DNA of 54,984 nt from the IMG/VR virus record IMGVR_UViG_3300048016_000081, positions 1 through 54,984 of that record; one strand, written 5' to 3'. The DNA is from a virus. Its lineage: Duplodnaviria; Caudoviricetes. The notes below the pieces were generated by a model, which ran no database searches, had not been told where the DNA came from, and saw only the letters and a program-made list of their open reading frames with translations. Positions 20,846 through 33,884 of the stretch are shown here, in pieces (position 1 is the stretch's first letter; the number at the start of each line of letters is the position of its first letter). The position numbers and the translations under genes are program-made.

Positions 20846-22319
20846 TTTAGGCGCATTTGCTGGTGGTCTGGCCAAAGGCGGCATGGACACGTACCAGACA
20901 CTGGAAGCTATCGAGTCTCAGAAGAAGCGTGATGCTTTGATTGAGCTACAAGCGCAGGAAGCTAGGGCTGCTGCGGAAGAACGCACTGCGCTCAAAGGCG
21001 CAGCAGCTAGTACATTTGGGCAAGTTGGTGCTCCTGAAACTGCTATTCCCGGGCGCAAGTTGTCTGAGGCTGATGTCACTAATGCTTACGCCATTGACCA
21101 AGGTGACCCTACGGCAGTTGCTCCTAAGGCATACACTCAAGCGCAAGCGGAAGCTGACTATCTTTCTAAGGTGCGGGGGATTAGCCCAGAACGTGCTTTG
21201 GATGTTGAAGCTAAGCAAATGCAAATTCAGTCTGGCCGTCGCGAGCAAAAGTTTGACCAAGACTTTGACGCTGAGCGTACTAAATGGAACCAGCAGACTA
21301 CTGACCTGATGAGCAAGTTTGACACCGCCCTAACTCAAGACGGGGCAAATGGTGTTGTGCGCGAAATTGGGCCGGAGTTTAAAAAGATTACAGGTAAGAG
21401 CATTGCTCTCGTGGGTAACGACATCGTAGTGGGCACCGGCAAAGACGCTGAAAAAATCCCAGCTAAAGACTTGCGCGGCGCGTTTGAGTCTGCCATGACA
21501 CAGCACTACACCCAAGGTTTTGCCGATACATTGGTAAAGAAGGGTATGTTCAAGAACGCTAATGAGGCTATTACGTACCAGCTCAAGCGCGGAGAACTTA
21601 ATGTTGCTGAACGTGGAGCAGCCGTTGGCGAACGCGGAGCAGCAGTTAAAGAAGCCCGCCTGCCATTTGAAAATGCCAAAGATGCTGCGTACGCTGGATA
21701 TTTAGGCGGCGGCGGTAAAGGCGGCGTTGGCGGTACTGCGGGCAAAGCAGCTACAGCCCAACAAATGGTGGATGACGGTACAGCTCCAGATTTGGCCACT
21801 GCGTACCGCATCATGGCAGCTAAAGGCGCTACACCTGCTGTTGATGCTCAATGGGGGAAACTCGAAGAGAAGTTAGCGGGTGCTACGCCAGCTGAGCTTG
21901 CAGTTCAGAAAGAAGCCTTCTACGCCCGCAATGGGTATGCCCCAGCCACGCTAGCAGCTTCTATCACTAGTGGGGTTAAGCCCGATGGTAAGAAATGGAG
22001 CCCTGAAGACGCTAAGAAAGTAGTAGCTGACTTCAATGCAAAGTACCCCAATTCAAAAATCAATATGGCCGACCTTACTTGGGTTAAGTCAAAAGACAAA
22101 GCCGAGACTAGCAAACCCGACTCCGCCATACCTGCCAAGGGTAAGGGTTCATCGAACTTCTATTCCTCAGAAGCCGCCGCAGCTCGCAAGGCTGAACGTG
22201 TGGCCCGTGACGCCGCAGTTGCTGAAGAAGAACGCAAAAAACGTGAGGTCGCAGATGCCGAATCTGCTAAGATGCGCTCAGCTATTGCCGCTGACTTCAA
22301 TAGCAAGTACGGACGCTAA
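20835..22319 (+). CDS. Internal virion/ejection protein
   Basis: MAFNLGAFAGGLAKG start, Ala/Lys/Glu-rich helices; position before giant gene. Confidence 0.7.
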   Translation: MAFNLGAFAGGLAKGGMDTYQTLEAIESQKKRDALIELQAQEARAAAEERTALKGAAASTFGQVGAPETAIPGRKLSEADVTNAYAIDQGDPTAVAPKAYTQAQAEADYLSKVRGISPERALDVEAKQMQIQSGRREQKFDQDFDAERTKWNQQTTDLMSKFDTALTQDGANGVVREIGPEFKKITGKSIALVGNDIVVGTGKDAEKIPAKDLRGAFESAMTQHYTQGFADTLVKKGMFKNANEAITYQLKRGELNVAERGAAVGERGAAVKEARLPFENAKDAAYAGYLGGGGKGGVGGTAGKAATAQQMVDDGTAPDLATAYRIMAAKGATPAVDAQWGKLEEKLAGATPAELAVQKEAFYARNGYAPATLAASITSGVKPDGKKWSPEDAKKVVADFNAKYPNSKINMADLTWVKSKDKAETSKPDSAIPAKGKGSSNFYSSEAAAARKAERVARDAAVAEEERKKREVADAESAKMRSAIAADFNSKYGR

Positions 22320-22337
22320 TGCGGAGAACAGAAAATC

Positions 22338-25300
22338 ATGGCTAATATTTGGGACGAGTACGAACGCGACCTGTTCTCCGAGAAAAAGAAAAAGGACGAC
22401 AAACCTGCTTCTTCCAATATCTGGGATGACATCGAGCAAGAGCATTTCAACCCAAAGCCAAAGGCTGGACTTACCTCTAGCCAAGTTTCTTCCTCCATTG
22501 ACCGTTACCAAGCTGGCCTATACGGCGTAGGCGAAGCTGTCGCTGAAGGCGTCGGAGCTAAAGATTCTGCCGAGTGGCTTAAAGGCCGCCGTGAAGAAAA
22601 CGAATTCTTGGCCGATAAAGCATCTCAACGCGCTCGCGACCTTGGTGCGGTTGACCAATTTAAAGATGTACATAGCCTAAGTGATTTTGGCAGCTACGCA
22701 AAAGGCTTGGCCATCCAATCCCTGCCATACGCTGGTGAAGCCTTGGCTGGAGGTCTTCTTGCTCGTGGCGCTATGTCTGGCACTCGCGCTGCCCTTACGG
22801 CGGCCAAAGAAGCTAAAGACGTTGCCGGCGTCGCCCGTGCTGAACGCGCCTTGAACGCAGGCTCCCAAGCTGGTGCAGTGGCCGCATCCTATCCGTCTGC
22901 TGTGGGCGATGTGCTGGGTAACCAGCGTGAACAATCTGATGGTGAGACTCGTGGTGGTGTCGCTGCTGCACTAGCCGTGCCGTATGCTGCGCTGAACGCG
23001 TTTGGTGTTGAGGGTGCTTTAGCCCGTGGCACTGCCTTCAAGAACACCGTGAACCTCCTTGACCGTGGCACCGGCTTGACTGGTGCTGCTGCTCGTACTG
23101 CTGCTACTGCAACTGGCGTGGCCCTCAAAGAAGGTGCTTCGGAAACTGGCCAAGAGATGCTGAACCAAGTTGGTCGCATGTCGGTTGACTCAAGCGAAGC
23201 CTTCCTAAGTGAAGCAGCCCAAGAGCGATTCAAAGAATCATTCATTGGTGGTGCAGCCCTTGGTGGTCTGGCCGGTGGTATCGGTGGCGGCTGGCGTCGT
23301 AGCTCTGCTGGTGGTAATGACATCTCCCAAGCCATGGGTAGCAAGGACGCTACACAGCCGGACATCACGACAACTCAGTTCACTCCGCCCCCTCCACCCC
23401 CCGCTGCTGATATAACTGGCACCCCGTCTGTTGTTTCTACGCAACAGACCATTCCTTCGGCTCCGGCAGTCGTAGGTGGTACTACGGATATTGCACAGGC
23501 GCAAGCCCAAGCTCAGGCTGCCCAACAACAACAGCAGATGCAGGAACAGCAGCAGGCTGCTCGCGAAGAGTTCACTCAGCGCTTTGGCGGTGTGCGCCCA
23601 GCCTTGGATGAGAATGGCCAGCCTACGCAAAGCGTGGTGTTCCAGAACAAGACATACCACACCCGCGACGAGCTCAATGCTGCCGTGGACAAACTGGTAG
23701 CTAAAGATCAGACTAAGGACGACCATGCTCGTCAAGTACAAGCTGCATTTACCAAGACTTACTCTACTCAAGAGAAGACCCCGAACGTAAACTCAGTTGT
23801 CTCCCAGACCAGCCGGTACACCAATCGCACTGCATCTGTGGAAGAGGCTGCCGCACGAATTAACATCGAGATCGCCACACTGGTGGGCCAAGGTAAAAAG
23901 CTGGATGACACTAAGTTATCTAAGCTGGCCGAGTTTTACGAGAACCTTACTGGTGTGACAGCACCAGCTTACGCAGCCGCTGAACAAGCACAACCAACAG
24001 GAGTTAACAATGGAAAACTGCAACTGCAAAACGATGCCGGGCTTCGAGAAGTACCAGTCACAGGCGGAGCAACAGAAACAAACGATGGACAAGCTGGGGG
24101 TGTACGACCCGCTGTGCTTCAATCCGTCGGAGCAACAAGTGTCGGAGCGGGACCGCTTGACCTCCAAGCTGGACAGCCATCAACAGGCGGAGTACGGACA
24201 AGCACCGGAGATGTATCCAATGCTGCCGGTGGCGATGCCACGCAAGCGCAAGTAAATGGGCAAGCTCAAGCAACCGTTCCAAGTGCCGCCCAAGTCACCG
24301 ACGAACGACTCCCTAATGAAAATCTTGGGTCAGTTCCTCCAGTACAACAAGAGCAGTCAGTTGAAGAACAACGAGCCGAAGAAGTCCCCAACTTAATTCG
24401 CTCCGCGCTTCGCATGATTTACAAGTCAGACCGCAAGGTCGACTTGTTGTTGCTCTTGACCGAAAAAACACAGCGCAGTGACTACGCCGCAATCGCTAAG
24501 GAATACGGAGTAACCGAGCAGTACGTTAAGGAGCTGGCGGCAGAAGCCATTACTGACAAAGGTAAAACTTTCCCCCGTTTCATTGAAGCCAACATTGACA
24601 AGTTCATGGCCGCAGTCAACGTACAAGCGGAGCAATCCGGTATTAGCGTACTAGAAGCTCTCGATGCGTTGCAGACTATCCATGACGCCTACGAGGGCGG
24701 GCTCGCTTCCCAATTAGGCGTGGAAGTGAATGAGGGCGACCTCATTAATGCTGGTATGGAAATCCAGAATCTCAAAGAGCGCACTGACAATGAAGGCAAA
24801 GGTACTGGCAAAGTAGACCGCACCAACGTATCCGACTTGGCCGAAGAAGGCAACAAGATGGAAGCCTTGATGCAACAGTACTTGGACCTGTCCAATGAGC
24901 TGGAAGCTGCCACTGAGGCCAATGACGAGCGTGTTCAAGAGCTGGAAGAGCAAGTCGCAGAGTTAACTACAAAAATCGCCGCCGCCGAGAAGAAAGAAAA
25001 AGCTCGCGTTCGCGCCACGGCTGGAAAACAAGCACCAAAGGAAACTGAAAATGCCGTTCAAGTCGAAAGCACAGATGAGGGAGATGTTCGCGAACCAGCC
25101 GGAGGTAGCGAAACGGTGGGCGAAGGAAACGCCGAACCCCAAAAGCCTGCCAGAAAAACTAAGCAAGCCAAAGTCGAAGACAACGCCGACCAAGCCGCGC
25201 CGGAAATAAGAACTCCGCAAGAGCAGTATGACGCTCTGGCCGCCACAACCAATCTGTTACCTCCGTACGAGGCATTGGATGAACGCGAGCGTGCTCAAAT

Positions 25301-28300
25301 AGAAGACCAAGCCTATCAAGGTAAGTTGACTCTTGCGTCATTGAACACCATGTTCTCGGGCAACGCCAAGTTCGGTAAAGACGTTCGCGCTATCAATCCG
25401 TACACCGTGGCTGAGCTGACCAAAGATATTGAAGATTTTGTTCGTGCATCAATCTCATCGCGTAAGCTGGTGATAGTTAACTCAGTTGAGGACTTGACGA
25501 ACTCTGCTGATAAGGTTGTAAAACAGATTGGTGCCGTGCTTGCCGTTGAAGGCGCGTATGGTGTTGCAGTAAATGGCCGTGCCTTCCTGATTGCAAACCG
25601 TATCGAAAAAGGTATGGGTCGTGCCAAGTTTATGCACGAGGTCGGAGCTCACATAGGGCTAGAGAATCTGCTACCTAAAGCAACATATGACCGCCTTGTC
25701 GCCCAGATTAAAAAGTGGACAAACTCTGAGGCTGACACTGATGAAGTTACCTTGGCTGCCAGAGCTGAGATGCGTGTCCTCAACGCTAACACTCCTGCCG
25801 CTGACTATGACGCAGAACTGCTGGCTTACTTTATTGAAGAAGCTGTCCAAGCCGGCATTGACCCAACCGCTTCTGGCAAAGAGACTGGTGCTCTGCGCGA
25901 GTGGTTCCGTACGTTGTGGGCTGCGTTTAAGGTTGCTGTGCGTAAGCTGGGGTACAACCCTGAGGCCATGACTGCGCAAGACATTGTGGATATGGCTTTT
26001 GGCGCTGCTCGCTTGGAGATGTCAGGTACGTACCACGGCACTGCTGCTAACTTCCGTAACTTCCGTAATGAGTACATTGGCTCTGGCGAAGGGGCTACCG
26101 CTTATGGCTGGGGTACATACCTTGCCGAACGCTATGGGATTGCTAAGGGGTATTTTGAAGCTGACGTGCGTCGTAAGACCAAGGATGCCCCCGTTACGAA
26201 TCCAGCGCAGGCGGTACAGGATTTCTTTGGTTTTGGGAAGCTGGTAAAGCCAGACGGCAGCCTCATGCGCGTTGATACCTCAGTTGCTGATGACGAGCTG
26301 TTTAACTACAACGCCACAGTGGCAGAGCAACCACAACGGGTGAAGGACGCTATTAAGTCCATGCTTGACCCCATCGCAGATGAAGTGTTAGATCGCACCA
26401 ACTCTGACGTGGATGAGCTCACTGGGCGAGACCTCTTTGGTACGGGGGAGAATGACCTCGGCTTGTTGAGCCGCTTAATCATGGACGACGTGCTAGTCGC
26501 CGACGGTGCCAAGTTCAACAAAGCTGTGCAGCAAGGCGAATTCCACAAGGCAGCGTCACTGTTGCTCGAGGAAGCTGGTATCGCAGGCATTAAGCATCTG
26601 GATGCTCGTAGCCGTGGCACCGCCACTAGCGTCATTCAGTTCCGTGGGAAAGCATACAACCGAGATGAGCTGCGGGACGCTGCCCGAGCTGCTTATGCAG
26701 CCAAAGATGAGCAGCAGACCTTTGAGATGGGCATGCTACGAAGCCTGTTACAGAACGGGATTGACCACGTCAGAGCTATGCACCAGTCCAAGCAAGCGTA
26801 TTACGAGCGCTTGTTCTACAAGACTGACAAAGAATCCGCTGAGAAGTTCAAAGTTCCTTTCGACGAAGAGCAAGCTCGCGCTGACGCAAAGCGAAAAACT
26901 AAAGACTTGTTTGAGACCAAAGCGCTCGACTGGCTGGACAAGCACGAGGCTGAGATTTCCATGGCGGAGAATCCGCGCACATACAACCGTATTTTGTTTA
27001 GTGATAAGAACATCTTCCGTGTTGGCACCCAAGTGGCCGCAGATCGCCAACGCATGCGCTTTGGTAAAAATATGTCTACCCGCCTGAACGAAGGACTAGA
27101 AAACAATCTCCCCGCCTCGGTGGTAAAGCCTGCTAAGTCTGTAGTGTCTACAATGGGTGCTGCCGTGAAGAACGGCTTGTTGGCTGTGGGTATCACTGAA
27201 GATGTAGTCAACGCCGCTAGCAAGTACATGCGCTCCGCTCAGGATTACCTGACTGCTCAGTACGCTCGCCAGAAGACTCGCCTCGAGTTTGAACAGCGCA
27301 TTGAGGCTATCCTCGACTCGTTCGACAAGCTGCCCAAGAACCTCCAAGGTGAAGACGCTGGCAGCGTGAACCGCTACATCTTGGACTCCACGATGAGCAA
27401 GAAGTGGGGCTACTACCCCGGTGAAAAGCGCATTGGCACAAAGTTGTTTGAGGTTGACCCAGACTTAGAGAAGCGCTTCCTTGCGTTCCCACCTGCTGCC
27501 CAGCAACTAATTCGTGACGTGTTTGAGCACGGCTACACCGCCCTCAAGGCTAAGAGCGACGCTATTGATGTAGCAGTTGAGCGTGAGTTTGCTGAACGCA
27601 CCAAGGCCGCCGCAGGCGATGCTGACCTATTAGATGAAGTGGCTACTGCCAAGAAGCTGATGCGTACTCAGTTGAGCAGCATCCAGAACGTCGACTTCAC
27701 TACCCCCTACGCCTACCTCGGTCGTTACGGCGACTACGTCGTGGCAGCCAAGTCTGCTGAGTTTAAGTACTGGGAAGGCGTTGCTGCTGAGAAGGGTGAG
27801 AACAAAGAACGTGCCGCTGCATGGTTGGCTGAGAATACTTCCAACCCAGACCACTACGTTGTACAGTTTGCTGAGACCCAAGGTGAGGCTGACTCGATTG
27901 CTGCTGATCTGATTGCCACTGGCAAGTTCGACATGGACGGCACTGAGGCTGGCCCCAAAGAAGACATCGGTTCTTACATTGGTTCTGATGTCCACCTCGC
28001 TGTAGCGCGTCTGCGCAACTTGATCTCTCGCCAAGAAGGCGAAAGCGGTGAGGGCAACTCTGACCTCAACCGTATGATTTCTGACCTGTACCTGACGACT
28101 GCTGCTGAAAACAGTGCTCGTAAGTCTGAGATCATGCGTAAGTACGTGGCCGGTGCAAACGGAAACATGATGCGTAACTTGGCCACGTCTGGCCGAGCCG
28201 ATGCCCACTTCCTGAGCACAATGAAACACAACGACGATGTGGTGGATGCCCTCGAGCGCATGCGCAACGAAGCCAAGGGCAACGTGCGTAACGCAATGCC

Positions 28301-29867
28301 CATCTACAACGAGTTGTTCAAACGCCAGACAGACAGCCTTGAGTACAAGTCGCCATCGACTTTGAGCCTCGCGTTGACTCGGGCCACATCCGTGTGGTTC
28401 TTGGCTACTAGCCCTGCGTTCTACCTGCAACAGATGCTGCAAACTACTGTGCTGTCGCTGCCTTATATGTCTGGTCGCCTCGGTTACTTCCGTTCTGCTC
28501 GCGCCATCAAGGCTGCATACAGTGACGTGGCTACGCTGGTCAAGGGCATGGGTATCAACGAGCACATTGATTTCTCTAAGGCTCCAGCTGATGTGCGCCC
28601 TATGCTCCAGACTCTGGTTGGCATGGGCAAGATTGACATTGGTATTGACGCCGACGCCAAGGCTCGTGCTGGCGAGAACAATGTGCTGAATACAGTGATG
28701 CGCAAACTCCAAGGTGTGAACAACCGCATTGAAGCTGTGAACCGTGCGACTGCCGCGATTGCTGCGTACCGTGGATACATCCAACGCTACGGCGCTGGTA
28801 ATACTGACGCTGCCACTAAGTTCGCTGCTGATGTCGTGTCCAACACACACGGCTCATACGATGGGTTTAACACGCCGCGAGTTCTGAATAGCGACATTGG
28901 CCGTTTGGTTGGTCAGTTCAAGCGCTTCCAGATCATCCAGCTCTCTATGCTGGGCAAGCTTATCAACACATCCTTCAAGGGCGCAAGTCCCGAGGAACGA
29001 GTTGTGGCTCGCCGCGCATTGGCTTTCATCACTGGCCACATGGCTGTCGTGGGCGGCGCACTGGGTGTTCCTTTTGTACAACAAGTTGCTAGCTTAATGC
29101 TTGCTGCCTTCGGCGACGATGACGAACCTAAGAACCTTGAGTACACACTGCGCCAAGCCATTGGCGACGAGACTATGGCTAACCTGCTCCTGAACGGTGT
29201 GCCCGCTGCGGCTGGCGTGAACCTCAGTGGTAAGCTGGGTATGGGTAACGTGGCTTCTATCCTGCCGTTTACTGACGTGGACTTGTCCACTCGCTCTGGC
29301 TACGAGAAGACGATGGTCGGATTGATGGGCCCATTCCTTGGCGGTCTGGCTCCTAAGTTTGCCGATGGCGCTGGTATGGTTGCCAAGGGTGAGTACTACA
29401 AGGGTCTGGAGCTGCTGATGCCTAACGGTATTGGTAACGCAATGAAGGGTGCTCGTATCGCCAACGAAGGTGTGACGATGCGCAACGGCGATGTAGTCCT
29501 GAAGCCAGAAGAAATTAGCATGGTAGACGCTGCGTTCCAAGCTGTTGGTTTGCCAACGACTACCCTCACTGGCCGTCAGTACACCCAGAAGATCGCAATG
29601 GACTTTGACAAGTTCTACAGCACCAAGGCTGCCGACATCAAGGGCGCGTACGTCAATGCCAACCGCGATGGCGACACGGAAAGTATGGCGGAGGCCCGTA
29701 AAGATTGGGAAGACCTGCAAGCATCACGCCGCAAGAATGGCTATAAAATACAGCCAATGTCGGAGCTGTTTAAGGCTACCGTTGCTGCCCGTAGGCGTGA
29801 AGCTGGTGTGGTAGATGGCGTTGAGACTACTAAGTCCAACAAAGAGTTTGTGAAGAACATCATCTAA
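22338..29867 (+). CDS. Giant polyvalent ejection protein (2509 aa) with HTH-like, zincin-like and ADP-ribosyltransferase-like regions
   Basis: EGASETGQE membrane-type N-terminal region; YAAIAKEYGVTEQYV; MHEVGAHIG...ELLAY; YHGT..NF..F...IGSGEGATAYGWGTY; long helical C-terminal region. Confidence 0.85.
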   Translation: MANIWDEYERDLFSEKKKKDDKPASSNIWDDIEQEHFNPKPKAGLTSSQVSSSIDRYQAGLYGVGEAVAEGVGAKDSAEWLKGRREENEFLADKASQRARDLGAVDQFKDVHSLSDFGSYAKGLAIQSLPYAGEALAGGLLARGAMSGTRAALTAAKEAKDVAGVARAERALNAGSQAGAVAASYPSAVGDVLGNQREQSDGETRGGVAAALAVPYAALNAFGVEGALARGTAFKNTVNLLDRGTGLTGAAARTAATATGVALKEGASETGQEMLNQVGRMSVDSSEAFLSEAAQERFKESFIGGAALGGLAGGIGGGWRRSSAGGNDISQAMGSKDATQPDITTTQFTPPPPPPAADITGTPSVVSTQQTIPSAPAVVGGTTDIAQAQAQAQAAQQQQQMQEQQQAAREEFTQRFGGVRPALDENGQPTQSVVFQNKTYHTRDELNAAVDKLVAKDQTKDDHARQVQAAFTKTYSTQEKTPNVNSVVSQTSRYTNRTASVEEAAARINIEIATLVGQGKKLDDTKLSKLAEFYENLTGVTAPAYAAAEQAQPTGVNNGKLQLQNDAGLREVPVTGGATETNDGQAGGVRPAVLQSVGATSVGAGPLDLQAGQPSTGGVRTSTGDVSNAAGGDATQAQVNGQAQATVPSAAQVTDERLPNENLGSVPPVQQEQSVEEQRAEEVPNLIRSALRMIYKSDRKVDLLLLLTEKTQRSDYAAIAKEYGVTEQYVKELAAEAITDKGKTFPRFIEANIDKFMAAVNVQAEQSGISVLEALDALQTIHDAYEGGLASQLGVEVNEGDLINAGMEIQNLKERTDNEGKGTGKVDRTNVSDLAEEGNKMEALMQQYLDLSNELEAATEANDERVQELEEQVAELTTKIAAAEKKEKARVRATAGKQAPKETENAVQVESTDEGDVREPAGGSETVGEGNAEPQKPARKTKQAKVEDNADQAAPEIRTPQEQYDALAATTNLLPPYEALDERERAQIEDQAYQGKLTLASLNTMFSGNAKFGKDVRAINPYTVAELTKDIEDFVRASISSRKLVIVNSVEDLTNSADKVVKQIGAVLAVEGAYGVAVNGRAFLIANRIEKGMGRAKFMHEVGAHIGLENLLPKATYDRLVAQIKKWTNSEADTDEVTLAARAEMRVLNANTPAADYDAELLAYFIEEAVQAGIDPTASGKETGALREWFRTLWAAFKVAVRKLGYNPEAMTAQDIVDMAFGAARLEMSGTYHGTAANFRNFRNEYIGSGEGATAYGWGTYLAERYGIAKGYFEADVRRKTKDAPVTNPAQAVQDFFGFGKLVKPDGSLMRVDTSVADDELFNYNATVAEQPQRVKDAIKSMLDPIADEVLDRTNSDVDELTGRDLFGTGENDLGLLSRLIMDDVLVADGAKFNKAVQQGEFHKAASLLLEEAGIAGIKHLDARSRGTATSVIQFRGKAYNRDELRDAARAAYAAKDEQQTFEMGMLRSLLQNGIDHVRAMHQSKQAYYERLFYKTDKESAEKFKVPFDEEQARADAKRKTKDLFETKALDWLDKHEAEISMAENPRTYNRILFSDKNIFRVGTQVAADRQRMRFGKNMSTRLNEGLENNLPASVVKPAKSVVSTMGAAVKNGLLAVGITEDVVNAASKYMRSAQDYLTAQYARQKTRLEFEQRIEAILDSFDKLPKNLQGEDAGSVNRYILDSTMSKKWGYYPGEKRIGTKLFEVDPDLEKRFLAFPPAAQQLIRDVFEHGYTALKAKSDAIDVAVEREFAERTKAAAGDADLLDEVATAKKLMRTQLSSIQNVDFTTPYAYLGRYGDYVVAAKSAEFKYWEGVAAEKGENKERAAAWLAENTSNPDHYVVQFAETQGEADSIAADLIATGKFDMDGTEAGPKEDIGSYIGSDVHLAVARLRNLISRQEGESGEGNSDLNRMISDLYLTTAAENSARKSEIMRKYVAGANGNMMRNLATSGRADAHFLSTMKHNDDVVDALERMRNEAKGNVRNAMPIYNELFKRQTDSLEYKSPSTLSLALTRATSVWFLATSPAFYLQQMLQTTVLSLPYMSGRLGYFRSARAIKAAYSDVATLVKGMGINEHIDFSKAPADVRPMLQTLVGMGKIDIGIDADAKARAGENNVLNTVMRKLQGVNNRIEAVNRATAAIAAYRGYIQRYGAGNTDAATKFAADVVSNTHGSYDGFNTPRVLNSDIGRLVGQFKRFQIIQLSMLGKLINTSFKGASPEERVVARRALAFITGHMAVVGGALGVPFVQQVASLMLAAFGDDDEPKNLEYTLRQAIGDETMANLLLNGVPAAAGVNLSGKLGMGNVASILPFTDVDLSTRSGYEKTMVGLMGPFLGGLAPKFADGAGMVAKGEYYKGLELLMPNGIGNAMKGARIANEGVTMRNGDVVLKPEEISMVDAAFQAVGLPTTTLTGRQYTQKIAMDFDKFYSTKAADIKGAYVNANRDGDTESMAEARKDWEDLQASRRKNGYKIQPMSELFKATVAARRREAGVVDGVETTKSNKEFVKNII
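24010..24255 (+). CDS. Nested +1-frame gene A inside the giant gene (81 aa)
   Basis: AGGAG-ttaaca-ATG; host frame turns low-complexity with rare CGA/GGA/ACA codons here. Confidence 0.55.
   Translation: MENCNCKTMPGFEKYQSQAEQQKQTMDKLGVYDPLCFNPSEQQVSERDRLTSKLDSHQQAEYGQAPEMYPMLPVAMPRKRK
24256..24396 (+). CDS. Nested +1-frame gene B (46 aa), abuts gene A as TAA-ATG
   Basis: MGKLKQPFQVPPKSPTNDSLMKILGQFLQYNKSSQLKNNEPKKSPT. Confidence 0.5.
   Translation: MGKLKQPFQVPPKSPTNDSLMKILGQFLQYNKSSQLKNNEPKKSPT
25051..25209 (+). CDS. Nested +1-frame gene C (52 aa), small basic MPFKSKAQ-type phage protein
   Basis: AAGGA RBS; MPFKSKAQMREMFANQPEVAKRWAKETPNPKSLPEKLSKPKSKTTPTKPRRK. Confidence 0.75.
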   Translation: MPFKSKAQMREMFANQPEVAKRWAKETPNPKSLPEKLSKPKSKTTPTKPRRK

Positions 29868-29877
29868 GGAGTAATCC

Positions 29878-30135
29878 ATGGCTACAAAGAAAACACCATC
29901 CTTGGCCGTAGGCCGTGGCGAGAAACTCCCTGTCTCTAAGGGGGCTGGCCTCACAGCTAAGGGCCGCGCTAAATACAACGCTGCCACTGGCTCAAACCTA
30001 AAGGCTCCACAACCTGAAGGCGGCGCTCGTAAAAAATCTTTCTGTGCACGGATGTCTGGTATGCCCGGCCCGATGAAAGACGAGAAGGGTAACCCCACTC
30101 GCAAGGCCGCGTCTCTCGCTCGTTGGAAGTGCTGA
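29878..30135 (+). CDS. Small basic protein (DUF6321-like)
   Basis: GLTAKGRAKYN, RKKSFCARMSG, SLARWKC; AAGGAG RBS. Confidence 0.8.
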   Translation: MATKKTPSLAVGRGEKLPVSKGAGLTAKGRAKYNAATGSNLKAPQPEGGARKKSFCARMSGMPGPMKDEKGNPTRKAASLARWKC

Positions 30136-30136
30136 T

Positions 30137-30325
30137 ATGGCCACGAAAGCTAAATCAACTGTCAACGCTGCTGGCAACTACACCAAGCCTACGCTTCGCA
30201 AGAAGATCGTGTCTCAGGTAAAAGCCGCAGCAACCCAAGGTACTGGCGCAGGTCTTTGGTCAGCCCGCAAAGCACAGCTCGTGGCCAAGAAGTACAAAGC
30301 CGCCGGTGGTGGCTACAAGGACTGA
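30137..30325 (+). CDS. Small basic protein (N-terminal half of DUF5872-like family)
   Basis: YTKPTLRKKI...WSARKAQLVAKKYKAAGGGY. Confidence 0.8.
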   Translation: MATKAKSTVNAAGNYTKPTLRKKIVSQVKAAATQGTGAGLWSARKAQLVAKKYKAAGGGYKD

Positions 30326-30890: not shown

Positions 30891-33884
30891 TTACTGGCCT
30901 GCGGATGATACCGCAGCGGTCTCTAAACTGACAACAGTCGGGCCACTTGTTTTCTCAACAACGCCTTCCATCGCAGCAAAGTCAAAGCAGTAACAGACAC
31001 ACGCGCCTGTCGAGTGGGCAGTGCCACGACCGATGTTGAATCGCTCAGAGCTTTTACCGACCCACTTCTTCTCCTGTGCAAACTTCAGCACTTCCTTTGG
31101 CTCCATGCGGTTCTTGGAGCACCAGTCGTAGAAGTCCTTCTTGGCGATGAACAGCTTACCAACCAGCTTGGGGTCAACAGTCTCACCGGAATTCTTGTTG
31201 GGCGAACCCAGTATGCGGCGGCCAACCGCCACGCCATTGATGCGCGACAGAGATTCTTCAGGGCCACGAGCATCAGCACGGGTATCACGGTAGCCCACGG
31301 TCACCAAGATGCGGCTAGACATCTCACGAATCATGCGGCTCACAGCCTCACCCGGGTCAGTCACGTTGCCCTTGGACACAGCAGCAGTCAGGTCAGTCAT
31401 CAGCAGAACTGTAAAGTCTTCCAGCTTTTGGTAGTCGAACTCCACGATGTTGTGATCGATCAGAATCTTGGCCGCCACCAGAGTACAAGTCGCATGGCTA
31501 CGGAAGAAACGATATTCAGACTGCGGCATCAAGCGGCTCATCTTGTTCTCGATCTTGGCGTAGAGGTCAGCGACTTCTTGCTGGTGCGTCACGATGTACT
31601 TCACGAACTCATGCCCTGCATTGCCCATGTTCTCGCGCATCTTGTCGATGGCGTTGGATACTTCGACGGCTGGGTCAATGATAGGTACGTTGTACGTGGC
31701 GAAGTTAATGCCGATCATGCGCACTGCTTCCGCTTGGGTGTTGGCGTTGTGGCCAGCTAGCTTAGAGTGCATGTCTTCGTTGGCAGTCAATCCAACCACA
31801 GTCTTCCATGTGTGCTGTTCAGCGAAGCCAACCTTACCACCAGCAGAAGTCAGACGAGCACGGTCAGTACCCTGAGATGTTGTGTAGGCCATAGCCGACA
31901 CTTCCGCTGCATCCATGTCAGTCATCTCATCAAACACCACGGGCAAGTTCTTGTGTGCACCGACGATAGCCCAGCGGGCATTGCGAGTTGCACCTTCCTT
32001 ACCAGCGAAGATCATCTTGTTGGCATCACAGATACCGTACAGCGCAGAACGCCACACAGAAGTCTTGCCCTTACCAGATGCGCCAGAGTTGACGGCTACC
32101 AGAGCTCCGTTATAGCTATCTTCGCCGAATGGAGTGATGAGCGAACCGTAGACATTACAGAAGACATACTGGGCAGCTTGGCTGTTCTCTCGGTTGTAAA
32201 TGTAATTAACGGCTGCGCTATAAGCAGCAAGAGAACCACGGGGCTCAGGATAAGCGTTGCGATGGTCAGCAGCAGCACCGCCGATAAACACTTTACGGAT
32301 TGAACCGTCTTGGTGATAAAGCCTGTCTCCAAGTAACACCCCGCTCATGTTGTCGCGCCAGCCAAACGCAGTCAATGTATCTGTCTCACGTTGCTCGGCC
32401 ATCAGCTTGTGGATTGAGTCGCGGATGTACGCGGTCATGTGCATCGTTGAGTCCTTGTTGTTAGATGGCATCAGTTCATACTTAGACAGTGCCTTGAGCA
32501 AGTCCGTGGATGAAGCCAATGCAGAAGTGTCCACCTCGAAGTCACGTACCCGTTGATCAGGCAAGTGCATGCGGATAGTGAACGCGTAAGCGCCGTCAGC
32601 CTTCTTGATGCGTTGGATTGGGTAGAACAGCGTACGGCAGAACGTGTACGGTTGCATCACACCGTCTTTGTCACGGATGAAGCGCAGCATGTGCTCTGAC
32701 TGATACTCATAGCCCTCGGGCATCGGGGGCACAATGGCCTCCAACACTTGGTCAGGCTTGGCCTCGTCAATGACCTCTACCGTTGATTCTGCTGGTTCAG
32801 GCAGTAGCCGTCCCAACACGATTGGTGACTTGATGTTTCCCTTATGAACACAGCTTTCGCAGGCGGTCGGGTTACAGCGTTGAAAATATTCACAAGTAGC
32901 AGGGCCGCTATCCCAAGTGTTATAACGGGTATCAACGTCCACATTAGAGTGGCCAGTAGCTGCTCTATGTTCGCTCCACTCATGTGCCAGAGGTTCTCCC
33001 TCGACGCAGTGTTTGATAATGCCGATGATGCCGCGCCATGATTCATAGTCAACGTCTCCTTTGGTGTCACGCATCTTGCCAACTTGAGCGCAGTGGTTTG
33101 CAACCTCATGGGCAGACGAGTCAATCTGTGGGCCAAGATGGCCAATCAAGTCATCGTTCAGACCAGCAATGGGAGCACGACTGACTGGTTGTTGTGGAAT
33201 AACGTCGTACTTAGCAACAGCGGCTTGCACCGCTGCGTGAAAATCTTTTGGGTCAACCGCTGTACCTTCACGGACAACTTTAACTTGGCGCGGGTCACGG
33301 CCCGGCTTTCGGTTATGACTTCCCGCAGGACGCAACACAGATGACAGATCAGCAGTGCGAGTTGGGTCAACAAGAAGGCCAGCCCCAGCCAATGCAGCTT
33401 TAAAACCACTGGCCATACCTCGCCAGCTATTTGGACCAATACTACGGGTGAGCGGCCAATAACAATGTATGCCGCCACCACTGTCAACAAGCATAGGGTC
33501 AGGGAACCCGTTAGCGCGGCAAAAACCCAAGATAGCAGATGCAGCAGACTTCTTATCGGGGTAGCCCTTGCCTTCAGCAGCTTTGTCCGCACCGCAGTCG
33601 ATGTCAGCCCAAAACGATTTGGCTTTGAACCAGTTGGGTTCGCCGCGATATTTTTTCTTAGTCTCGCCGTTGACGACAGCTTCATAGCTTGGCTCCTTAT
33701 AAGCAGCACAGGCGTGATAGACAGTTAAGTTAGTTTGCTCGTTGTAAGAAGCGATGGCCTCGGCCATCGTCTCCAGTGAAGCGTATGCCTTGTGGGCAAT
33801 GCCAGACGAACCAGCACGGCTCAAGCCAACGAACTTATACCCATCTTCCGGCAAGATTGTTTTGAGGAAGGTGAGTGCGTCCAT
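30891..33884 (-). CDS. Primase-helicase (AEP/RepB-like primase, PriCT-like, Zn-binding, DUF927, P-loop)
   Basis: WADIDCG, DSGGGIHCYW, VLRPAGSHNRK, Cys cluster CEYFQRCNPTACESC, GASGKGKTS, VVFDE. Confidence 0.88.
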   Translation of the reverse strand: MDALTFLKTILPEDGYKFVGLSRAGSSGIAHKAYASLETMAEAIASYNEQTNLTVYHACAAYKEPSYEAVVNGETKKKYRGEPNWFKAKSFWADIDCGADKAAEGKGYPDKKSAASAILGFCRANGFPDPMLVDSGGGIHCYWPLTRSIGPNSWRGMASGFKAALAGAGLLVDPTRTADLSSVLRPAGSHNRKPGRDPRQVKVVREGTAVDPKDFHAAVQAAVAKYDVIPQQPVSRAPIAGLNDDLIGHLGPQIDSSAHEVANHCAQVGKMRDTKGDVDYESWRGIIGIIKHCVEGEPLAHEWSEHRAATGHSNVDVDTRYNTWDSGPATCEYFQRCNPTACESCVHKGNIKSPIVLGRLLPEPAESTVEVIDEAKPDQVLEAIVPPMPEGYEYQSEHMLRFIRDKDGVMQPYTFCRTLFYPIQRIKKADGAYAFTIRMHLPDQRVRDFEVDTSALASSTDLLKALSKYELMPSNNKDSTMHMTAYIRDSIHKLMAEQRETDTLTAFGWRDNMSGVLLGDRLYHQDGSIRKVFIGGAAADHRNAYPEPRGSLAAYSAAVNYIYNRENSQAAQYVFCNVYGSLITPFGEDSYNGALVAVNSGASGKGKTSVWRSALYGICDANKMIFAGKEGATRNARWAIVGAHKNLPVVFDEMTDMDAAEVSAMAYTTSQGTDRARLTSAGGKVGFAEQHTWKTVVGLTANEDMHSKLAGHNANTQAEAVRMIGINFATYNVPIIDPAVEVSNAIDKMRENMGNAGHEFVKYIVTHQQEVADLYAKIENKMSRLMPQSEYRFFRSHATCTLVAAKILIDHNIVEFDYQKLEDFTVLLMTDLTAAVSKGNVTDPGEAVSRMIREMSSRILVTVGYRDTRADARGPEESLSRINGVAVGRRILGSPNKNSGETVDPKLVGKLFIAKKDFYDWCSKNRMEPKEVLKFAQEKKWVGKSSERFNIGRGTAHSTGACVCYCFDFAAMEGVVEKTSGPTVVSLETAAVSSAGQ

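Follow-up and report, generated by a model that had tools for sequence, protein, structure and literature searches.

Introduction

Out-of-frame embedded genes are a kind of phage gene that is already known. In phage lambda, Rz1 lies inside Rz and both products are needed, and in phiX174 overprinting places B in A and E in D and also gives rise to K. The architecture of embedded two-component spanin genes has been reviewed (PMC6139136), as have overprinted genes in viruses more broadly (PMC8227390), and polyvalent or DarB-like proteins packaged in virions have been treated by Iyer et al. (2017; PMC5512222). In the available text of the latter article the words "overlap" and "linker" are absent, and nested genes in polyvalent proteins are not described there. 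Full-text literature, supplementary files aside, yielded general work on overlapping genes and embedded spanins, and nothing on nesting within polyvalent or DarB-like virion genes. The locus considered here lies in IMG/VR virus record IMGVR_UViG_3300048016_000081 (Duplodnaviria; Caudoviricetes), a complete record of 54,984 bp with direct terminal repeats, called the window below. Within a giant gene of this virus, two tandem open reading frames (ORFs), orfA and orfB, follow one another in the +1 frame, and a third, orfC, lies further downstream (Table 1). Comparison with related sequences indicates that orfA and orfB are very probably real protein-coding genes, overprinted on a linker of the giant gene. 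They are thus of a familiar kind, and the instance itself is new.

The initial annotation of the window, made from the letters alone, had reported an AGGAG-ttaaca-ATG at 24010 heading an 81-amino-acid (aa) ORF that ends in RKRK-TAA, with the ATG of a 46-aa ORF (24256) abutting its stop, and all of these elements were confirmed. Both ORFs lie in the +1 frame relative to the host gene, as (24010-22338) mod 3 = 1. AGGAG with an ATG 4-8 nucleotides (nt) behind it occurs 17 times in the window against 7.8 +/- 2.5 expected, a number reached in 0 of 100 shuffles, and most of these copies head ORFs of at least 80 aa. In the mechanism proposed here, ribosomes on a long late mRNA would initiate orfA internally at AGGAG-N6-ATG, and ribosomes terminating at the orfA TAA could restart on the abutting ATG to translate orfB. 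The products would then be small accessory proteins made together with the internal-virion or ejection proteins. Action in assembly, or delivery with the giant protein, would be the likeliest role for them, although a part as virion-associated or assembly partners of the giant protein is in itself rated less likely than not.

Conservation of orfA in relatives

Relatives were drawn from viral, metagenome and genome contig collections. After removal of the window's own copy and of four loci that repeat a contig (L004, L005, L010, L012 and L014 in all), 58 loci matching orfA were kept, 56 of them complete and two cut by a contig end, with 50 distinct orfA nucleotide sequences. The 50,697 records of isolated phages gave no match to the region by blastn, and none to orfA or to orfC by tblastn.

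orfA is intact in all 56 complete loci (49 distinct sequences), at protein identities to the window of 37.5-89% and lengths of 78-91 aa. The signals that would direct its translation are conserved along with it, so that the loss in relatives which the initial annotation had named as grounds for rejection is not seen: the start codon is ATG in 58/58 loci, a Shine-Dalgarno (SD)-like motif precedes it in 57/58, GGAG stands at a spacing of exactly 6 nt in 49/58, and the stop is TAA in 55 of the 56 complete copies and TAG in the remaining one. The host frame is open across orfA in every complete locus, with some 520-710 host codons upstream; on the other side no stop interrupts it before either the locus or the giant gene ends. 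orfA was never seen free-standing and is nested in all 56 complete loci. One of the loci, L018, is a 1261-bp contig binned with an Actinomycetota metagenome-assembled genome and bears orfA and orfB nested within the host frame; it may hint at a host or may be a mis-binned phage fragment.

Selection in the two reading frames

In the nucleotide alignment the sequence upstream of the SD diverges strongly between lineages, while conservation extends over SD, ATG, orfA body and CGCAAGTAA, with changes falling at orfA third positions. Across the 49 distinct sequences and 78 codon columns, mean pairwise difference at orfA codon positions 1, 2 and 3 is 0.356, 0.265 and 0.427, respectively. Position 3 exceeds position 2 (Wilcoxon p = 1.2e-6) and position 1 (p = 0.023). 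The third position of the host frame, which corresponds to orfA position 2, is the most variable in just 9 of the 78 orfA columns; in three flanking stretches with host coding alone, its variability (0.655-0.684) far exceeds that of the other two positions. Amino-acid identity to the window is higher in the orfA frame than in the host frame in 13 of 13 comparisons. On a 61-codon gap-free core of 14 sequences, the median ratio of nonsynonymous to synonymous substitution rates (dN/dS) is 0.175 over 91 pairs for the orfA frame and 2.43 over 81 evaluable pairs for the host frame, by the Nei-Gojobori method, which is not designed for overlapping frames.

Scans along the giant gene place this signature at the nested ORFs. 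In 10 sequences compared along about 5 kb of host gene, variability at host position 3 falls below that at position 1 at 23997-24210, where it drops to 0.09-0.14 against a background of 0.6-0.7, and again at 25035-25170; a few isolated single windows are also flagged, in gap-rich regions of the alignment. When the three full-length sequences are scanned along the whole gene, 23937-24398 and 25026-25157 alone stand out, apart from a single tie at 25581-25697.

The host frame is preserved as well. Re-encoding the amino acids of orfA with synonymous codons typical of the genome puts 6.2 stops on average into the host frame, and 0 of 5000 resamples leave it open; in the same test it stays open in 2.8% of resamples for orfB and 0.2% for orfC. 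The open host frame in the relatives therefore points to true dual coding and not to a mis-called giant ORF. Taken over the aligned loci, selection in the overlap acts mainly on the nested frame and both reading frames are maintained. The central proposal of the initial annotation, that genes are overprinted at this site, was thus borne out by comparison, through conserved signals, substitutions in the phase of the nested frame and a host frame kept open.

Codon usage in the interval covered by orfA and orfB bears the imprint of the nested frame. The annotation had described a switch of the host frame to rare codons, and counts agree: among synonyms, CGA makes up 4/5 in the interval against 10/137 in the rest of the giant gene (p = 3e-4), GGA 9/18 against 14/193 (p = 1e-5), ACA 6/10 against 24/147 and GTA 6/15 against 25/155. 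The fraction of host-frame codons with A at the third position is 0.45 in the interval and 0.16 elsewhere in the gene, peaking at codon 540, and codon adaptation reaches its minimum for the whole gene at codon 570 (0.521; gene mean 0.743, standard deviation 0.073). This arises as a geometric by-product, because host position 3 is nested position 2, and nested position 2 is rich in A owing to the abundance of Gln, Glu, Lys, Asn and Asp codons in the nested genes. For coding potential in the +1 frame, the eight highest-scoring windows of the giant gene (80 codons each, scored with a codon table from 8942 codons of the same genome) all begin at 23989-24199, so that they reach to about 24440, and in them the +1 frame outscores the host frame. 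The amino acids of the host frame in the overlap and its odd A-ending codons are thus largely dictated by the nested genes.

The linker that the annotation had noted is present as a Gly/Ala/Gln/Val/Thr-rich stretch over the interval. AlphaFold2, given host aa 428-797 and a 17-row alignment, models residues 555-679 (model residues 128-252) without secondary structure and with predicted local distance difference test scores (pLDDT) below 50. Helical domains flank them, with 10-residue block means of about 80-90 before and about 70-86 after. In this model the overlap sits on a predicted disordered interdomain linker of about 125 residues. The end of orfB coincides with the start of the next conserved host domain.

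Table 1. Features of the giant gene and its nested ORFs (positions in the window)
Feature	Position	Strand	Basis
Host gene, 2509-aa giant protein, putative internal-virion (polyvalent, DarB-like/PLxRFG C-terminus)	22338..29867	+	ORF list, phrog_10089, tblastn, neighbours
Putative Shine-Dalgarno AGGAG, 6 nt (ttaaca) before orfA ATG	23999-24003	+	Sole AGGAG-N4-8-ATG within the giant gene
Predicted disordered interdomain linker in the host frame, host aa 555-679	24000..24374	+	AlphaFold2 model
orfA, very probable 81-aa nested gene, +1 frame, ends RKRK-TAA	24010..24255	+	Comparison with relatives
TAA-ATG junction, candidate termination-reinitiation site	24253..24258	+	orfA stop abuts orfB start
orfB, probable 46-aa basic (pI 10.1) nested gene, +1 frame	24256..24396	+	Type-1 coding signature, whole-gene scan
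orfC, probable 52-aa nested gene, +1 frame, AAGGA (25038-25042) upstream	25051..25209	+	Relatives, third-position scans, resampling, phrog_1375

orfB and the TAA-ATG junction

An orfB-like ORF, taken as one of at least 40 aa starting 0-24 nt past the orfA stop, is present in 35 of the 49 distinct relatives and always in the orfA frame; the 14 that have none belong mostly to the most divergent lineages. The start adjoins the orfA stop directly (TAA-ATG or TAA-GTG) in 14 of the 35, lies 12-15 nt after it in 20, mostly behind a GGAG-like motif, and 24 nt after it in one. The orfB of the window has no SD before its start. This placement of the starts, always in the orfA frame, is compatible with translational coupling.

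The orfB sequences fall into several types, and constraint differs between types 1, 2 and 3. In type 1 (the window, L001, L002, L003, L018 and L041), the proportions of nonsynonymous (pN) and synonymous (pS) differences are 0.185 and 0.591 in its own frame, as against 0.311 and 0.145 in the host frame, and the orfB frame is the more conserved in 15/15 pairs (10/10 in a smaller set). The same holds for all three pairs of type 3 (L006, L008 and L015). The widespread type 2, with 11 distinct sequences, behaves differently: pN/pS is 0.266/0.314 in its own frame and 0.238/0.416 in the host frame, and identity is higher for the nested frame in only 7 of 55 pairs.

These figures bear on the explanation that orfA is a gene and orfB is not, the latter being a passive continuation of a stop-poor frame whose apparent conservation reflects nucleotide sequence shared among near relatives. 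The relatives without orfB and the lack of a nested excess in type 2 are what this explanation would predict; the dual-coding evidence is also weaker here, the host frame surviving re-encoding now and then as given above, and the type-1 test is based on just 5-6 sequences. It does not readily account for the pairs of types 1 and 3, all of which favour the orfB frame, for a start that lies 0 or 12-15 nt behind orfA in 34 of 35 relatives, or for the flagging of 24210-24398, the orfB side of the overlap, by the three-genome scan. We regard it as improbable, although it deserves more weight than a token mention. On these comparisons orfB appears well supported in the lineage of the window and neither universal nor uniformly constrained, with weaker support than orfA. 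For the translationally coupled, overprinted pair that the initial annotation had envisaged, the overprinting of orfA and the type-1 signature of orfB stand; the relatives that have no orfB, and type 2 with no excess of constraint in its own frame, count against it. A predicted orfA-orfB complex scored 0.00 in a run without controls, which weighs neither way.

orfC and the possible origin of the overlap

orfC encodes a basic protein that begins MPFKS. It is conserved in nine distinct relatives, and across it the first host codon position varies more than the third. Its residues 3-32 match phrog_1375 weakly (E 3.8e-4 over 30 residues). Independently of that match, a broad orfC family is supported: it comprises 380 small proteins at E <= 1e-3 and has at least 409 matches on viral contigs; its members start MPFKS, and they are widespread as free-standing genes of 41-66 aa. 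Among 80 sampled viral loci the family gene is free-standing in 56 and nested in 24, in the latter always in the same relative frame and within an ORF open across the whole 3-kb locus. Only 8 of these 24 have flanks resembling the giant protein described here. In the others (L070, L076, L081-L083, L101, L102, L106, L115, L116, L119, L120, L124, L127, L128 and L138) no similarity to it could be detected in the flanks, and these 16 loci suggest that nesting of orfC recurs in other large genes.

Because its family is mostly free-standing and is nested in the remainder of the sampled loci, orfC is probably the older partner, through which the giant gene reads. A more far-reaching and tentative idea is that the giant virion gene was built partly by engulfing small genes, its modules being joined by read-through in another frame and the small genes turning into disordered linkers that are still translated; we consider this possible and by no means the likelier outcome. 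The small proteins could be dedicated partners of the giant protein, as assembly or neutralising factors. Were engulfment true and general, it would be a recurrent route of growth for polyvalent phage proteins, and because orfC occurs in both states, on its own in some phages and nested elsewhere, it provides a natural series on which ideas about the origin of gene overlap can be tested.

Negative controls and alternative explanations

Other ORFs of similar appearance provide a yardstick. A 175-aa ORF with an AGGAG-N7-ATG start lies out of frame (33161-33697, minus strand) in a 997-aa primase/helicase-like gene (30891..33884, minus strand). Three of four matching relatives carry stops in this ORF's frame, which marks it as a chance ORF on this comparison. 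Within the giant gene, a 94-aa +1 ORF is interrupted by stops in both L001 and L002, and +1 ORFs of 161, 59 and 42 aa are unalignable or only partly alignable in L001. Towards the 3' end of the giant gene, a 52-aa +1 ORF (29656-29814, plus strand) is open in L001 and L002 at 53-56% identity; it is not flagged by the third-position scan and is probably a chance ORF too. In these two relatives orfA, orfB and orfC can all be aligned and are open.

That the nested ORFs arose by chance is suggested by the stop-poor +1 frame, in which ATG-initiated ORFs of 46-81 codons appear without being genes. Over its 2509 codons the giant gene has 88 stops in frame +1 and 200 in frame +2; this far smaller number is why all the nested ORFs are in +1, so the shared frame that the annotation had pointed out is real and is accounted for by stop frequency alone. 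Under synonymous-codon shuffling of the giant gene (n=2000), 97% of shuffles contain at least one ATG-ORF of at least 81 aa and 31% contain at least three, and the two +1 stops in the interval lie within the expected 3.3 +/- 1.3. orfA itself ranks no higher than fifth in length among the 65 ORFs of this frame, and the unconserved 94- and 161-aa ORFs show what the frame yields. Length alone is therefore within chance for the nested ORFs. What the frame does not yield is an ORF intact in every complete locus down to 37.5% identity, with SD, ATG and TAA conserved and with substitutions in its own codon phase, where control ORFs are interrupted in relatives. For orfA a chance origin is already refuted by these sequence comparisons, and for the nested ORFs as a whole it is extremely improbable.

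Ribosomal frameshifting would make orfA the tail of a fusion with the N-terminal module of the host protein and not a separate product. Lambda G/GT and T7 10A/10B are examples of such fusions, SD-like sequences can stimulate frameshifting, as in prfB and dnaX, and the open +1 frame reaches back beyond the orfA ATG by a median of 21 codons. Against this, the invariant ATG with GGAG at its fixed distance has the geometry of initiation, some relatives have an in-frame stop 0 codons before the ATG, no conserved slippery heptamer was seen in the alignment, where the sequence upstream of the SD is divergent, and a -1 slip would enter the other frame. Programmed frameshifting is accordingly given very little credence. 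A nucleic-acid element, such as an RNA structure or a regulatory or packaging signal, could also produce the unusually conserved host third positions. Against it, the variation has a three-base period in orfA phase with synonymous-type substitutions, a small-protein family can be recognised by hidden Markov model (HMM), and Rfam gives no match in the nested-gene region at E <= 1. If the gene model were instead split, host-frame stops would be expected; there are none in the 56 complete loci, against the resampling result for chance, and homology runs on both sides in one frame. Both variants are exceedingly unlikely.

Several points nevertheless weigh against taking orfA and orfB as genuine genes, besides the patchy occurrence of orfB, its type 2 with no excess of own-frame constraint, the unremarkable ORF length and the dN/dS method already mentioned. 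The relatives are of metagenomic origin and not phylogenetically independent of one another. Neither orfA nor orfB has a significant match in Pfam, PHROGs or NCBIfam, and an AlphaFold2 model of orfA, with three short helices, is of low confidence (pLDDT 70; predicted template modelling score 0.39). The ESM Atlas gave no usable match for orfA, so that neither family, solved structure nor Atlas neighbour supplies a function. As for expression, two metatranscriptome runs contain small shares of relevant sequence. Contigs from RNA libraries cover 23486-23792 exactly, and short pieces from relatives lie at 24168-24255 and 24966-25148; all are small, may derive from DNA carry-over and are silent on translation. 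Overprinting of both genes remains by far the best explanation of the locus.

Properties of the nested proteins

The orfA family numbers 59 small proteins of 51-108 aa in a collection of 5.8 billion proteins. An exhaustive HMM search of 1.84 billion representatives returned 11 matches, all of 55-99 aa and none within a larger protein. Ten residues are invariant in the 56-row alignment (K7, P10, G11, E13, P39, S40, Q42, R49, S52 and K53), and the C-terminus carries a short hydrophobic stretch followed by basic residues. The orfA product is about 9.4 kDa with an isoelectric point (pI) of 6.6; that of orfB is 5 kDa and, like that of orfC (pI 10.9), basic. Sequence profiles from the PDB gave 0 matches to orfA and orfC at E <= 1. 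orfA has a nearly invariant Cys near its N-terminus, and the giant protein (22338-29867) is without any cysteine. An embedded Rz1-like o-spanin was considered for orfA and rejected: its N-terminus is polar and has no hydrophobic stretch, signal or lipobox, and the host protein is not an i-spanin.

The giant gene and its context

The left half of the window is a podovirus-like structural module encoding terminase, portal, major head protein and tail fibre, together with a 612-aa internal virion protein and a 353-aa virion or ejection protein. The giant ORF follows this module, and its neighbours are internal virion and ejection proteins of the late structural set. In isolated phages only aa ~1710-2494, the C-terminal third, finds similar sequence by tblastn. 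The 80 phage records matched there, all below 60% identity, are annotated as DarB-like antirestriction or PLxRFG proteins. The giant protein also matches phrog_10089 ("DarB-like antirestriction") at E 2.1e-45. In Pfam its only match is to ART-PolyVal, below threshold (19 bits; cut-off 31.2), and the methylase-helicase dyad of P1 DarB was not found. Its place among DarB-like, polyvalent proteins is consequently given by C-terminal homology and by its position among late structural genes.

A scan for sigma-70-like promoters gave 0 sites inside 22000-30200. Given this, and no Rfam match in the region, translation of the nested genes from the long late transcript is the simplest reading.

Comparison with known systems

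Standard gene callers forbid nested genes, and small proteins of this sort are therefore systematically missed; here such genes are conserved over a set of at least 49 distinct uncultured phage genomes, orfA in all of them. The present case is unusually clean, with constraint in the nested frame, a disordered spacer in the host frame and both maintained. The nested genes also explain an anomaly of codon usage that could otherwise pass for foreign DNA, and they add new small-protein families to the poorly understood internal-virion and ejection apparatus.

Embedded spanins are among the closest described arrangements: there, as at orfA, a larger phage gene encloses the whole of a small one, which is read in the +1 frame and has its own start signals. 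Unlike spanins, orfA and orfB show neither signal peptide nor lipobox, their host gene encodes a 2509-aa internal virion protein, and two nested genes follow one another, a third lying about 800 bases further on. A second parallel comes from small phages, whose overprinted genes also use two frames, of which one bears most of the constraint and the other is often disordered and compositionally odd. The present locus, however, belongs to a double-stranded DNA phage of 55 kb, in which no pressure on genome size is obvious, and in the case of orfC it is the nested small gene that looks older, and not the newcomer. The host gene itself resembles the polyvalent proteins in being giant and multi-modular, in lying among late genes and in its DarB-like C-terminal region (phrog_10089) with a weak ART-PolyVal match. 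Finally, orfC has its weak match among the small phage proteins of phrog_1375; the orfC family is widespread as free-standing genes, whereas here, and in 24 of the 80 sampled viral loci, the gene is nested in a long ORF.

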